DNA of 64,000 nucleotides from Candidatus Helicobacter avicola (GCA_019112865.1 DXIN01000025.1:5498-69497); one strand, 5' to 3'. Counted from the first letter of the stretch, positions 8,597 to 13,600 are shown. Translations and numbers: made by a program. The notes: a model not told the origin generated them from the letters alone.

Positions 8597-10124
8597 AGGT
8601 AAGCAATACTATCATACTTTCAAACCCATTTTAGATGCGCTAGATTCGCTCAAACACCCTTACACCTATCTCACTTCTGGACAAGATGATCCCGCGTTTT
8701 TGCGTGAGGGTGCGCGGTCTTTTGGCACATTTACATACATTGGCGAGGGTAATAAAGCCTATATCAAGCTCAACACGCTCAAAGCTGATATTTGTGTGCT
8801 GACCACACCGGGTTTAGATGTCCTGCAGATTAAGCGCAGTCGTGGAGTGCGCCACTACTGCCACATCGTGCATTCGCTCACACCGATGACTTATCGAGCA
8901 TTTGGACTGGATTATTTTGATTCGGTGTTGGTGGCAAATGAGATTCAGAGGGATTTTGTGCGTGAAGTAGAAATGGCGCACAATGTGAAGAGAAAGTATA
9001 TAGGGGTGGTGGGATCGACCTATCTTGATGAACTTTCTCAATTAAGGCATTCAGTCTTGAGCGATAAAAGCGGGAATCTGCACTCGGATTTTCGGTCACT
9101 TACGCCTAGTAAGCTCCCTCAATCCTCGCTTGATAACCCACTTTTCTCATCTCAATCCTTAGAATGCCAAGAGGGCAAGCCAAGCGCAGAATCTAAAGAA
9201 AATCTAAAAACTCAAGTGGATTCAGAATCTAGCCTCACAGAATCTATAGATTCACAAAAGCCTGAGCTTGCACACAAAGAGCAGCACGAACTTCTAGTCG
9301 CCACACACAGCAATTCTAAGATTTTCGATGAAAAATGTGGGTTGCAAGGAAAACACGAGGGGAGTTACCTTAGCGGTAATGACCCAAAGTGTTTTTCGCC
9401 GCTCCCGCATTTGTCGCGAAAACGAAGTTTCTTTAGAAAAGCCGAATTGCCAAAAGACAATGCACCACAATCTACACCAACAATTCTCATCTCTCCTTCG
9501 TGGGGACCTGAAACCCTCCTCACCAAATACGGACTAACCCTCCTAGAACCACTCGCTCAAGCGGGCTTTAGTCTCATTATCCGCCCACACCCCCAAAGCC
9601 TCATCGGCGAAGCAGAATCCAAAAACATCGCCCACCTGCAAGAATCTTTACAAAAATATAAAAATGTCGTATGGGACATCGGCACGCCCAATGTCTATGC
9701 CTTTGCCAAAGCTGATATGATGATTTCGGATTTTAGCTCGGTGATTTTTGACTTTGTCTGTCTTGAGGCTAAGCCCGTGCTTACATTAGATTTTGCCTTC
9801 GATCCTGCTGGTTATGATTTGAGCGACATTGATATGGAGCATTTTTATACTTTTGAGACGCTAAAGCGTATAGGTGGGAAGCTAAGAGAGCAGGATTTTG
9901 CCCACATTGCTAGCATTATCACACAGATTTTAGAATCTAACAAATCCCAAGAAGCCAAAAAATGCAAAGAAGAGCTGTGGCGATACCCACATCACGCTGG
10001 ACTTAAAGCTGCACAAGAGATTCTAAAAATTGAGCGTGAGCTACTAGAGCATAGTCTCAAAGCCTATATGCCACAAGTGCGTAGGATTCGCGAGATAGAT
10101 TCTATGCTAGAGAGGGGTGTGTGA
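8532..10124 (+). CDS. CDP-alcohol (TagB/TagF-type) glycerophosphotransferase-like enzyme; candidate phosphonate/phospho-alcohol transferase. Out of frame with its N-terminal anchor in this sequence
   Basis: Two-lobed Glyphos_transf-like pattern: the N-lobe ends in GSTYLDEL, and the C-lobe has ILISPSWG, IRPHPQS and MMISDFSSVIFDF. The lobes are interrupted by a repeat element of about 400 bp. Confidence 0.72.
   Translation: MVLALGGGGNYTLKDHLVFYSEGKQYYHTFKPILDALDSLKHPYTYLTSGQDDPAFLREGARSFGTFTYIGEGNKAYIKLNTLKADICVLTTPGLDVLQIKRSRGVRHYCHIVHSLTPMTYRAFGLDYFDSVLVANEIQRDFVREVEMAHNVKRKYIGVVGSTYLDELSQLRHSVLSDKSGNLHSDFRSLTPSKLPQSSLDNPLFSSQSLECQEGKPSAESKENLKTQVDSESSLTESIDSQKPELAHKEQHELLVATHSNSKIFDEKCGLQGKHEGSYLSGNDPKCFSPLPHLSRKRSFFRKAELPKDNAPQSTPTILISPSWGPETLLTKYGLTLLEPLAQAGFSLIIRPHPQSLIGEAESKNIAHLQESLQKYKNVVWDIGTPNVYAFAKADMMISDFSSVIFDFVCLEAKPVLTLDFAFDPAGYDLSDIDMEHFYTFETLKRIGGKLREQDFAHIASIITQILESNKSQEAKKCKEELWRYPHHAGLKAAQEILKIERELLEHSLKAYMPQVRRIREIDSMLERGV
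8547..8557. repeat. Homopolymeric G11 tract (candidate phase-variation switch) inside the TagF-like transferase gene
   Basis: Eleven consecutive G read directly from the sequence. The two overlapping ORFs on either side are in different frames. Confidence 0.95.
9044..9451. repeat. Palindromic MITE-like element, copy 1 (full: left arm, GAATCT-rich centre, right arm), in frame inside the TagF-like CDS
   Basis: The left arm starts AAGGCATTCAG. Arm segment 9094-9120 (GGTCACTTACGCCTAGTAAGCTCCCTC) is the approximate reverse complement of 9357-9384. The same left arm occurs at 11273, 16123 and 53892. Confidence 0.7.
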
Positions 10125-10628: not shown

Positions 10629-13600
10629 ATGATAACACAAACACTTTATTATATCTTTATCTACCCTATGCAAATTCTTCTTGGTGCGGTGTTTGATTGG
10701 CTCTATACTACCACACACAGCTATGGTGTGAGTATTATGCTTTTAAGTCTTTGTATCAATGTCTTTTTGCTCAAACTCACTAATCTTGCGGACAAAAAAG
10801 CGCGAGCGACCAATGCACTAAAAAATGTGTGTGATAAGAAAATTGCGGAGTTTAAGAAAGTCTTTAAGGGCGCAGAGCTGCACGCCTACACACAGACACT
10901 TTTTAAGCAAAAGCATTACCACCCTATTTATAATCTTTTTTCACTCGGTGGTTTGGCATTGCAGATTCCCTTTTTTCTTGGTGTGTTGTTTTTGCTCCAA
11001 GATTTCGAGGGCTTGCAGGGTTCGAGATTTGGCGTGATAGAGGATTTGAGCAAGCCCGATACCTTGCTTTTTGGCTATGCACTCTTGCCGTTTGTGATGA
11101 GTATTTTGAGTTTGATAAGTGTCTTTGTGAGTGCTAAAGAGCGAGGTGCGCGCATACAGGGGAGCCTTATCGCACTTATTTTCCTCGTGTTGCTGTATGC
11201 GATGCCAAGTGGGCTTGTATTATATTGGAGTGTGAGTATGGGGTTTTCACTCATACGCACTTTGTGGAAGCTAAGGCATTCAGCTTTTGGCGATAAATCA
11301 GGGAGTTTGTCGCTCGCTTCGTCGATAGACGCTCCAGTCTTATCTCCTCGCTCGCGACTGCACAACCCCGATTTCTCATCCAAAATCTTAGAATGCCAAG
11401 AAGGCAAGCCAAGCGTGGAATGTAAAGCAAGTTCAGAATCTAGTGTAGGTTTAGAATCTAGCCCCACAGATTCTAAAGATTCACAAAAGCAAAGTATAGA
11501 ATCTAGTCTAACAGATTCAGAATCTAAAATAATTACACAATCCACCACTTCAAAAACCCTTAACGAGGCTTTGCCAAATATCAATAATAATGGGCGCAGT
11601 AGCGCAAGTCGAGCAGAATCTAATTTTGCAAAATCGCACACAAATTCAGAGTTTGCACACACAGAGCCACACGAAATTCTAGCATCTTGCGATGATTTTG
11701 TGGGTTATCAAGCGAGGGGTGCAGGGAGCTACCTAAGCGGTAGTGACCAAGCACCGAGCGTAGATTCCCGCAAAAGTGCGCAAGAGGCGAATTTACTTTC
11801 AAGATTTAAGAATGTTTTACACGCCATTTTCACACCCCACAACGATTTAGATTCTAAAACCTACCTCACTTACCGCAATATCTCTATCTTTGCTCTGCTC
11901 AATATCTTTTTTCTTATCTTTGTGTTTTCGCCATTTGCAGTGTATAGCTCGGATGTGAGTCAGTTTGACCCAAGTCAGACTTTTCAGACATTAGGAGGGC
12001 TTTTTGGCTTTTTCTTGCTCTTTAGTTTCCTTGGGATTTATACTACTAGCTTTTTTTACCACACGCGACTTTTGAAGCTTGGAGCATATGGCGTGAGCGT
12101 GATACTCTGCATAGGACTTGTGTATACATTTGTGTTTGTGGGAGATTATGGTTCCATGAATCACTTTGTGTTAGAAAAGCTCAATTTTGCCAACCCAGAC
12201 TTGAGAGCGCAAAAATATCTTTTGTTTTTTGTGGTGTTTTTTGGAAGTATGATGTTTGTTGGGCTAGTGTTGCGATACTTAAAGAAAGTGTGGCAGTTTT
12301 GTTTTATTGTGTTTGTTGCAACAACCCCGATTTATTGCTTTACGATTATAGACACCACACACAATACATTCCAGGACAATGGCACAGAATCTTTCCTAAA
12401 ACCCTATGAGAACGAGTTGTTTTCGTATTCAAAAGTTCATAAAAACATTGTTGTTTTTTTGCTTGATATGTTTAGTGGCTCACACGCGCCTTATATTTTT
12501 TCACAATTTCCAGAGATTAGGGAAAATTTTGATGGTTTTGTGCTATATGACAACACGATTTCTACGACAGATTCTACTATCCATAGTATTTCTAGTATCA
12601 TAGGGGGAGAATACTACACCGCATACAATATGAATATTAGGGGAGATAATCTCGCTCAAACTATCACAAAAGCTTTTGGAGAAAATGGGCTAGCTTTTGC
12701 CAATAATGGCTATCAAGTGGGCTATTTTCTTAGTGTTAGCTCCCAAGGGGCTAATGCTATCAGAGACTATGCAGCTAACAAGATATTTGCCACAGACAAT
12801 ATTGCCTTGTTTCAAAATTATTATTACACATCTTTAGGGCTTGTAGAAAAACTTAACGAAGTCTTTCAGACAAATAAAGATTCTACAATCATTCGTTTGC
12901 TAAGCGTAGGGCTATTTCGCTTCTCTCCTGAATTGTTTTTTAGACCTAGGATTTATAATTCAGGGTTGTGGCTTGTAAGAGATAAATACACACAAGATGC
13001 GCTTATTTCATCGCAATATCTCTCAAGTCTCTATGCCTTTAGTCATATCCATAATACAAACGCCACACAGCCTACTTTCAAGTATTTTCACTCTTTGGCG
13101 ACTCATATGCCTTATGGGGTATTGTATGAAAATGGTAAATGCGTGCATTTTAGCCGACAAACCGCTTGGGACAACAAACAAGCAGAAATGATATATCCAA
13201 CACCGCAAGATAAAGAAATATATTATCAGCACTACGACACACAAGCCTGCGCTCTTTCCTATATTGCAGATTTTATACAATGGCTCAAAAATGAGGGAAT
13301 TTATGATAATACACAGATTTTTATCGTAAGTGATCATGGTGGCAATGATGGTATCAATATTTTGAGTTCCCGAGCTGATGCGCTTTTGCTATTTAAAGAC
13401 TTTAATGCAAAGGGTGTTTTCAAAATGGATTCTCGATTGATGGCAAATTATGATATTGCTAGTATTTTTTGTGAGAATCTCCCTCAAGGCTGTGCAAATG
13501 TGGGCAAAAACATTTTGGAGCATTACCCAAAAGACAGGGAGATTATCCATACAAAGCCAATTTCTTGGATGCTCCAATCGCATAAAAAAAACCAATGGAT

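Follow-up and report, generated by a model that had tools for sequence, protein, structure and literature searches.

The DNA considered here is a 64,000-nt stretch from Candidatus Helicobacter avicola (the window; coordinates are positions in the whole 64-kb stretch), in which copies of one palindromic repeat lie in frame within long protein-coding genes. These repeats very probably form a family of in-frame palindromic elements specific to enterohepatic Helicobacter, similar in behavior to the Rickettsia palindromic elements (RPEs) and without coding capacity for their own mobilization; we infer that the elements are selfish or neutral. The basic unit is a self-folding hairpin of 41 codons, in most cases with a repeat-rich tail behind it and often with a second, inverted unit as its partner. 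An earlier note on this DNA had proposed a dispersed, palindromic, non-autonomous, RPE-like element, a description that copy number, gaps in orthologues, polymorphism, and dispersal all support. The family is apparently undescribed; a literature search found no account of these elements, or of their AGAWTCT motif, in Helicobacter.

Hairpin units and composite inserts

Four forward units occupy the + strand of the window: 9046-9168 in a TagF-like gene, 11275-11397 in a YidC-LtaS-like fusion gene, 16125-16247 in the phosphonopyruvate decarboxylase (Ppd) gene, and 53892-54014 in an FrhB-like/pyruvyl-transferase fusion gene, ahead of the FrhB_FdhB_C domain. A covariance model (R1) built from 47 copies scores them at 128.4, 99.2, 123.6, and 117.3 bits, respectively, and brings the window to seven units by finding three reverse units on the - strand, at 9310-9431 (67.1 bits), 10484-10606 (61.5 bits), and 11673-11795 (53.9 bits). 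The forward copies are 68-81% identical to one another (pairwise blastn E 1e-17 to 1e-38), and a search pattern taken from the unit ends, GGCATTCAGNNYNNNGCGAN{78,104}CTTAGAATRCC, with 24 specified bases, matches the window at exactly these four sites and has 0 matches in 100 shuffles. The earlier note had placed a shared module at 9044, 11273, 16123, and 53892, and it is found there (starts at 9044/9046, 11273/11275, 16123/16125, and 53890/53892).

Each unit is a complete 123-nt imperfect hairpin that folds from its GGCATTC end to its GAATGCC end, so that these ends are terminal inverted repeats. The termini are nearly invariant (GGCATTCAG...CTTAGAATGCC), and the interior is highly variable yet paired: fold z-scores run from -3.3 to -7.2, and the RNAalifold consensus has 33 pairs, 19 of them with compensatory double changes. 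Because the interior varies by compensatory pairing, the peptide that it encodes differs wholly between variants (e.g., NLHSDFRSLTPSKLPQSSLDNP, SLIVGGGHYRLGSSLASNLHNP, and RIASAEATALTPSKLLASASQNH), which excludes selection on a protein domain. Length is nearly constant, with 43 of 49 units at exactly 123 nt and one at 126 nt, in frame; the three of 124 nt are all outside long open reading frames (ORFs). Among the related Helicobacter loci used for comparison (L001-L042, about 8 kb each), a few units are 153-160 nt long (L038 6292-6451, L039 1702-1854, L009 6929-7081). Just upstream, some units also repeat part of their own 5' end, so that GGCATTCAGCTTGTGGCTTA[A/G] precedes the full GGCATTCAG... 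unit (L009 ~7241-7270 and 2890-2920; L007 ~1425-1445), and one unit carries an 18-nt insertion after GGCATTCAGC; from their sequence, these duplicates and the insertion look like nested or abortive copying events.

Forward and reverse units combine into composites of 320-520 nt, consisting of a forward hairpin, an AGAWTCT-rich tail, and a reverse hairpin, with the two hairpins as long inverted arms. The left-center-right layout given in the earlier note thus stands, as do its inverted right arms, but each arm is itself a full self-folding hairpin, so a full copy is two inverted units plus a tail rather than one three-part palindrome. Tails open with a GGCAAGCCAAGCG module and continue with repeated AGAATCT or AGATTCT, translated as Glu-Ser or Asp-Ser. 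Since AGAWTCT is its own reverse complement except at the central base, a tail encodes the same kind of peptide either way round.

The TagF-like gene has the complete arrangement. Its forward unit (peptide HSVLSDKSGNLHSDFRSLTPSKLPQSSLDNPLFSSQSLECQ) is followed on the + strand by a tail at 9169-9309, which opens with GGCAAGCCAAGCG (GKPS), includes repeat families D2, D5, D6, and D10, and has three AGAATCT motifs (9188, 9224, and 9239) translated as Glu-Ser; the reverse unit at 9310-9431 (DNA fold z = -3.3; peptide SKIFDEKCGLQGKHEGSYLSGNDPKCFSPLPHLS) closes the composite. Positions 9061-9165 pair with 9313-9417, and relative to orthologues the complete insert spans ~9042-9470. In the YidC-LtaS-like gene the forward unit, an interior variant (SLSLASSIDAPVLSPRSRLHNP) also recognized by its fold, sits between the YidC domain and the LtaS-like part; the + strand tail at 11398-11672 (GKPSVECK..., six AGAWTCT motifs, ...TSKTLNEALPNINN...) leads to the reverse unit at 11673-11795, which has a DNA fold of -29.7 kcal/mol (z = -6.4), encodes HEILASCDDFVGYQARGAGSYLSGSDQAPSVDSRKSAQEANL, and is 94% identical to 10453-10606 (repeat family D3). 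The unit of the FrhB-like gene is followed by an AGAWTCT-rich tail that reaches ~54150, with motifs at 54028-54103.

Between tagF and yidC, an ORF of 167 codons (10121-10624, + strand) is nearly all element sequence, as seen from its translation, repeat matches, R1, and folds: a decayed forward unit (~10160-10270), a tail (~10300-10483), and the reverse unit at 10484-10606. Its segment 10205-10227 is 100% complementary to 9361-9383, and a Pfam search of the ORF gave no family match. The ORF overlaps each of its neighbors, tagF and yidC, by 4 nt. An open, element-only counterpart lies in the syntenic position of a related genome (L007 272-754), and the open frame may be maintained, e.g., by translational coupling or by avoidance of an untranslated stable hairpin. 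Such element-only ORFs are annotated elsewhere as hypothetical proteins (P0001-P0012); gene callers split or truncate host genes or name element-only ORFs in this way.

Coding potential is confined almost wholly to one frame. All four forward units of the window share it, inside long + strand ORFs, and the translations and peptides agree with the common frame reported in the earlier note. Stops end both remaining forward frames inside the first 21 nt (GGC ATT CAG TCT TGA and GCA TTC AGT CTT GAG CGA TAA); these are the TGA and TAA that the earlier note had named, and they can be read directly. Frame f2 alone spans the forward unit in nearly every copy, with few exceptions, mostly decayed or off-length units. 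The host frame is the sole ORF through the 123-nt units and the composites, which have no transposase gene of their own. Across all units scored in the window and the related loci, 70 of 90 lie inside stop-free spans of at least 200 codons, and 46 of the 49 forward units in such spans have f2 as their frame. Because ~93% of the window is coding, the fair wording is that the repeats, unlike REP, ERIC, or Correia elements, are not excluded from genes and that almost all copies within genes have the compatible frame.

The hairpin is also asymmetric between strands. In 47 forward units the mean folding energy is -41.3 kcal/mol on the model-sense strand and -54.0 kcal/mol on the opposite strand, with 40 and 174 G-U pairs, respectively; in 21 reverse units, for which energies alone were compared, the means are -37.6 and -50.0 kcal/mol. 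The unit at 9046-9168, for example, folds at -37.6 kcal/mol on the + strand and -55.8 kcal/mol on the - strand. The better fold is on one and the same strand in 68 of 68 units. For reverse units translation would proceed from the other strand, yet the preference is unchanged, so the asymmetry is a property of the element and not of the host transcript. This asymmetry hints at a single-stranded form of fixed polarity, DNA or RNA, that would be involved when the element is copied or repaired.

Insertion sites, distribution, and movement

Alignment with orthologues, a check proposed in the earlier note, shows the segments to be lineage-specific secondary insertions rather than ancestral domains. 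TagF orthologues of 58-78% identity, including those of H. muridarum and a spirochaete, run from STYLDELS directly to TILISPSWG and are without ~135 residues of the window protein. The structure of the Ppd alpha subunit (PDB 9iz3_A) aligns to residues 10-61 and 127-215 of the window Ppd; between query residues 61 and 127, the chain of 9iz3_A advances only from 83 to 86. The segment in question is the first Ppd insert (~16109-16303, residues 62-126), in the loop ahead of VVLMQNSGL.

Occupancy of a given site varies among related species. Across lineages Ppd has units at three different sites, and the window is empty at the third. At the second (16643-16737, + strand), where a linker joins the alpha-like to the beta-like half, the orthologues in L039 and L025 have a hairpin, and the window has a tail module with no hairpin (GKLRAECRADSESNVGLESSFTDS; families D2 and D5). 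Ahead of this module stands ACTAGAATTTC, within 16600-16660 (DTRIS, ...ACTAGAATTTCCGGCAAGC...). It is similar to the inner end of the reverse-type unit (CTAGAATTTCG), a resemblance by which it may be what a lost hairpin left behind; 'TRI(V/A)DS' peptides are found again in inserts of other species. Four species whose AlaRS proteins are otherwise closely alike where aligned show every one of the four combinations at alaS sites A and B, each of these sites being occupied in two species; site C is occupied in all four, with differing content. The empty allele of alaS site B reads GAGC-TAGATTCTA-TGCGG, so that the heptamer is already present; it is the sole usable empty-site junction, Ppd sites 2 and 3 being too diverged at the DNA level for the junction to be placed.

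The hosts are unrelated proteins. By Pfam, those of the window are a TagF-like glycerophosphotransferase, a fusion of YidC (residues 32-213) with a sulfatase/LtaS-like part (606-905), Ppd, which adjoins phosphoenolpyruvate (PEP) mutase, and a fusion of an FrhB-like protein (FrhB_FdhB_C, 243-416) with a polysaccharide pyruvyl-transferase. The concentration in glycan-modification genes noted earlier reflects this window only. Clade-wide, the hosts are unrelated housekeeping genes, including AlaRS (at three different sites), CarB, GuaA, UDP-glucose dehydrogenase (Ugd), IlvD, DnaG, a P-type ATPase, an ArsB/CitMHS transporter, MBOAT, Mur ligase, carbamoyltransferase, saccharopine-type dehydrogenases, and a Type III methylase. 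Insertion at inter-domain or loop positions, by contrast with that concentration, is upheld by the Pfam domain boundaries, by the alignment of Ppd with 9iz3_A, and by a predicted loop in TagF. In the AlphaFold model of the window TagF (predicted template modeling score, pTM, 0.76), a structure check also foreseen in the earlier note, lobes 17-176 and 317-529 have predicted local distance difference test (pLDDT) values >90 and insert residues 178-310 have values of 30-58 and no secondary structure, so that the insert is modeled as an unstructured, low-confidence loop between two well-folded lobes.

All copies found come from one bacterial group. A pattern scan of one genome per species in 185,579 species gives 45 exact matches in 42 loci, every one from enterohepatic Helicobacter: H. 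cinaedi, H. magdeburgensis, two H. bilis lineages, H. labetoulli, H. zhangjianzhongii, and several metagenome-assembled genomes (MAGs). R1 finds 83 units in 305 kb of related loci in addition to the 7 of the window, i.e., 90 in 369 kb, from ~15 Helicobacter genomes; the similarity among the window copies is significant as well. A search of the plasmid collection PLSDB with the composite element gave no match, and viral contigs scanned with the pattern gave no copies. The encoded peptide is found in only 38 clusters by an exhaustive profile search of 1.84 billion protein-cluster representatives, and in only 12 short proteins by a word-indexed peptide search. Rfam gave no family on the whole window at the gathering threshold or on 8900-12000 at E up to 5.

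Units move both within and between genomes. In one MAG, units are 94-98% identical at loci whose flanks are only 16-40% identical; near-identical units at unrelated loci of one genome point to recent intragenomic dispersal. Where the flanks of orthologous sites agree at 94-99%, identity of the unit itself can be as low as 74%, i.e., a different variant is present, and the TagF, yidC, and Ppd sites each hold different variants in the window and in the MAG BRZ_RP bin61. In yidC itself, the tract 11367-11870 is 99.4% identical over ~500 nt to L007 ~1490-2000 (BRZ_RP bin61), against 75-90% for the rest of the yidC-ltaS gene. The tract spans the 3' end of the forward unit, the tail (99-100% identical at 11398-11672), the reverse unit, and ~75 nt of host sequence, and its identity profile indicates a recent recombination import between lineages, with the left breakpoint inside the forward hairpin. 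Such an import accounts for part of the variant swapping. Typing schemes and phylogenies built on alaS, carB, etc. will be distorted by this insert polymorphism and by recombination tracts. In H. bilis ATCC 51630, three contigs (L016, L031, and L036) have identical copies of the yidC-ltaS region, unit included, with flanks 100% identical; this is either a multi-copy gene or assembly redundancy.

Several further features of the window concern the host genes. Position 8973 is Met148 of ORF 8532-10124. In its public annotation the identical protein (P0017) has 383 aa; this length and a coverage of 72% suggest that an internal methionine was taken as the start, which drops the N-terminal TagF lobe. 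P0013 and P0016, from close relatives, reach further upstream, into a signal/transmembrane-like segment, and the start of the TagF-like ORF in the window may be mis-set too. A phosphonate-type cluster at 13692-18422 (methyltransferase, cytidylyltransferase-PEP mutase fusion, phosphonopyruvate decarboxylase, and Fe-dependent alcohol dehydrogenase) adjoins the TagF-like and YidC-LtaS-like genes. From what we take to be the usual role of such clusters, the cluster and its neighbors would supply a nucleotide-activated phosphonate that decorates a surface glycan.

Possible routes of spread and the AGAWTCT heptamer

The favored explanation is that of a palindromic repeat family that would make new-site copies within a genome, and exchange variants at orthologous sites, by transposition, templated copying, or gene conversion; movement between lineages would occur by homologous recombination of the flanking gene. 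A genic copy would persist only in a loop or inter-domain linker and in the single stop-free frame. As the unit is 41 codons, ribosomes are proposed to read through it, and the unit to become a disordered surface loop; tolerance of in-frame copies as loops would then explain why they accumulate in housekeeping genes and not only in intergenic DNA.

Several points weigh against this reading. Direct repeats of 2-8 nt at offsets 0-4, sought as target-site duplications in 45 distinct flank pairs, are none above shuffled controls; the flanks show only a bias, with a 3' consensus AAGA(TTCTA) and a 5' flank that ends in purines. The 28 ORFs of the window that were scanned contain no transposase or HUH-type gene, and a parent insertion sequence has not come to light (no search was aimed at one), so transposition is not demonstrated; a parent, if one exists, is expected to have GGCATTCAGTATTGAGCGATAAA and its complement as flanks. 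The covariation in the hairpin might stem from self-templated repair inside the palindrome instead of selection for function, and founder copies may have passed on part of the strand asymmetry. The low pLDDT of the TagF insert partly reflects the absence of homologous alignment columns. Retention of the inserts in mRNA and protein is presumed from the open frame, the 3n length, and the lack of stops, and the window and several loci come from MAGs, though isolate genomes carry the same elements.

The main rival dispenses with transposition. It is possible, though not probable, that the units spread by homologous or short-patch recombination alone, as a recombination-driven cassette rather than a MITE (a miniature transposable element with inverted repeats); gene conversion between copies would use the conserved termini (20-25 nt) and the AGAWTCT-rich tracts, and natural transformation would add imported copies. 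Lack of target-site duplications and of a transposase in the ORFs scanned is what such a cassette would leave, as are the 99.4% identical tract, with its breakpoint within the forward hairpin and its ~75-nt reach into the host, the swapping of variants while flanks stay conserved, and the TAGATTCTA already present at the empty alaS site. Conversion, however, requires a prior copy or homology at the recipient, and the homology on offer at new sites is a motif of only 7-9 nt; first arrival in unrelated genes is left unexplained.

The motif concerned is a prominent feature of these genomes in its own right. AGAWTCT is the commonest 7-mer of the window (157 copies vs. ~11 expected, ~15x chance), and TAGAWTCTA is the commonest 9-mer (33 copies vs. 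1 expected). The heptamer occurs in all three reading frames and in intergenic DNA (e.g., 918, 1133, 5217, 14288-14453, and 58654-58705), is clustered in element tails, shows the 3-periodic spacing that coding tracts would give, and has an average density of ~3 per kb, ranging from roughly 2 to 4, over the whole set of enterohepatic Helicobacter loci. In abundance it resembles a DNA uptake signal or a protein-binding site, by analogy with such motifs. Hairpin units and AGAWTCT could be two parts of one system, which we consider doubtful: the heptamer would be a genome-wide recognition signal (a DNA-uptake, recombination, or nicking site) on which hairpin cassettes dock, and the cassettes, when copied, would pass through a single-stranded intermediate with a fixed polarity and would be swapped among fixed sites inside genes. 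If true, this would be a coding-compatible mobile cassette system that remodels surface loops of housekeeping enzymes, and AGAWTCT would be the first uptake-signal-like motif described in Campylobacterota. Two other ideas about the short motifs were dropped. Small REP-like hairpins formed by neighboring AGAWTCT copies give merely a weak excess of hairpin-capable pairs (109 vs. 75), and a restriction site in the termini, which contain GAATGC, would rest on a depletion of GAATGCC (4 left outside elements vs. ~11 expected window-wide) that is not significant.

Compensatory changes that keep the structure, consistently strand-specific folding with its G-U pairs, and the position of units at domain boundaries would also be expected if the host had recruited the hairpin as a functional nucleic acid, e.g., as a regulatory or antisense RNA, a site for RNase III, or a point of translational pausing. 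This is unlikely: the better-folding strand is antisense to host mRNA in the commoner forward units and sense in reverse units, so there is no consistent relation to the transcript; presence varies in essential genes of close species; and there is no Rfam family match. No promoter or terminator feature was noticed either, in work that included no scan aimed at them.

That the segments are a duplicated protein-level linker or domain, kept for a useful peptide, is highly unlikely. The frame is always open, terminal peptide motifs are conserved (HSxLSDKS and FSSQxLECQ), and worldwide the peptide is confined to its 38 clusters, but conservation tracks base pairing and not residues, the interior peptides being unrelated between variants; moreover, both orientations occur and give different peptides, units are also present outside genes, the AlphaFold insert is without structure, and orthologues function without it. 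An artefact of metagenome assembly or binning has next to no probability: the window is a chicken-gut MAG and many loci are MAG contigs, but the same units are at orthologous sites in the isolates H. cinaedi CCUG 18818, H. bilis ATCC 51630, H. magdeburgensis MIT 96-1001, H. labetoulli, and H. zhangjianzhongii, and the host reading frames are intact. A spliced insertion was rejected, with no Rfam match even at E up to 5 for an intron, 41 residues too short for an intein, and frame and 3n length strictly kept.

Comparison with known systems

The palindromic repeat family shares features with several classes of small repeats. Its small size, lack of a transposase gene, and terminal inverted repeats are those of a classical MITE; target-site duplication is absent, so that the term MITE-like used in the earlier note is apt as an analogy only. 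PARCELs are likewise dyad-symmetric coding DNA translatable both ways, as the AGAWTCT tails are in giving Glu-Ser or Asp-Ser in either direction, but they consist of amphipathic 25-residue repeats in tandem, within proteins whose function is unknown and many of which are membrane-targeted, rather than single hairpins inserted in enzymes. ERIC/IRU of Enterobacteriaceae and Correia/NEMIS of Neisseria are overwhelmingly extragenic, with 26-bp terminal repeats and a duplicated TA target in the case of Correia elements. The Helicobacter copies, in contrast, are mostly inside genes and show no target duplication. Common to ERIC/IRU, Correia/NEMIS, and the Helicobacter repeats are a length of ~100-160 bp, a whole repeat that is one long imperfect hairpin, multiple non-autonomous copies, and transcription within host mRNAs, presumed for Helicobacter (in part PMC10969869).

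Palindromic units are often inverted doublets in REP/REPIN-RAYT systems also, and the strand-specific pairing in Helicobacter fits the idea of a single-strand hairpin. REP/REPIN sequences are 20-40 nt long and extragenic and are associated with a gene for the RAYT transposase that mobilizes them, the single-strand hairpin being thought to be the substrate. The Helicobacter unit, at 123 nt and mostly intragenic, is outside the size and location that define REP classes (PMC3733652), and no RAYT gene has come up beside it, in work that included no search aimed at one. QMITE1 of Coxiella burnetii and the intragenic MITEs of Anabaena are small non-autonomous repeats that are sometimes within ORFs and form in-frame fusions (PMC5896051, PMC10969869); in-frame intragenic copies are a minority there, whereas in Helicobacter they are the rule and affect essential genes.

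The closest likeness is to the RPEs. RPE-1 to RPE-10 are dispersed palindromic repeats of 100-150 bp (Ogata et al., 2000, 2002, as summarized in PMC10969869), with many in-frame copies in unrelated housekeeping genes, a short peptide added, and insertion judged to be compatible with the fold; like the Helicobacter family, they are lineage-restricted and have no transposase of their own (PMC10969869). A 2024 review of prokaryotic MITEs presents them as an extreme case and mentions no Helicobacter example. For 25 years RPEs have been the one extreme case of selfish palindromic DNA within protein-coding genes, and Helicobacter would be the second. H. bilis, H. cinaedi, and their relatives are culturable, naturally recombinogenic, and medically relevant, so that the open questions on RPEs could be tested directly: whether inserts are translated, whether they alter enzyme behavior or antigenicity, and what moves them.

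The two families differ in important respects. The Helicobacter family belongs to another phylum, Campylobacterota, and to free-living, culturable gut bacteria, whereas RPE hosts are obligate intracellular; there is no sign of common ancestry, and the likeness is functional only, with no descent claimed and no comparison of RPE consensus sequences made. The Helicobacter unit is strictly 41 codons and has very many interior variants linked by compensatory changes, a 3' AGAWTCT-rich tail, frequent inverted pairing, and a coding-competent sub-type for each orientation. About three quarters of its copies are intragenic, compared with about half for RPE-1. If enterohepatic Helicobacter has a family of independent origin that is even more gene-centered, the phenomenon would not be peculiar to reductive intracellular genomes.

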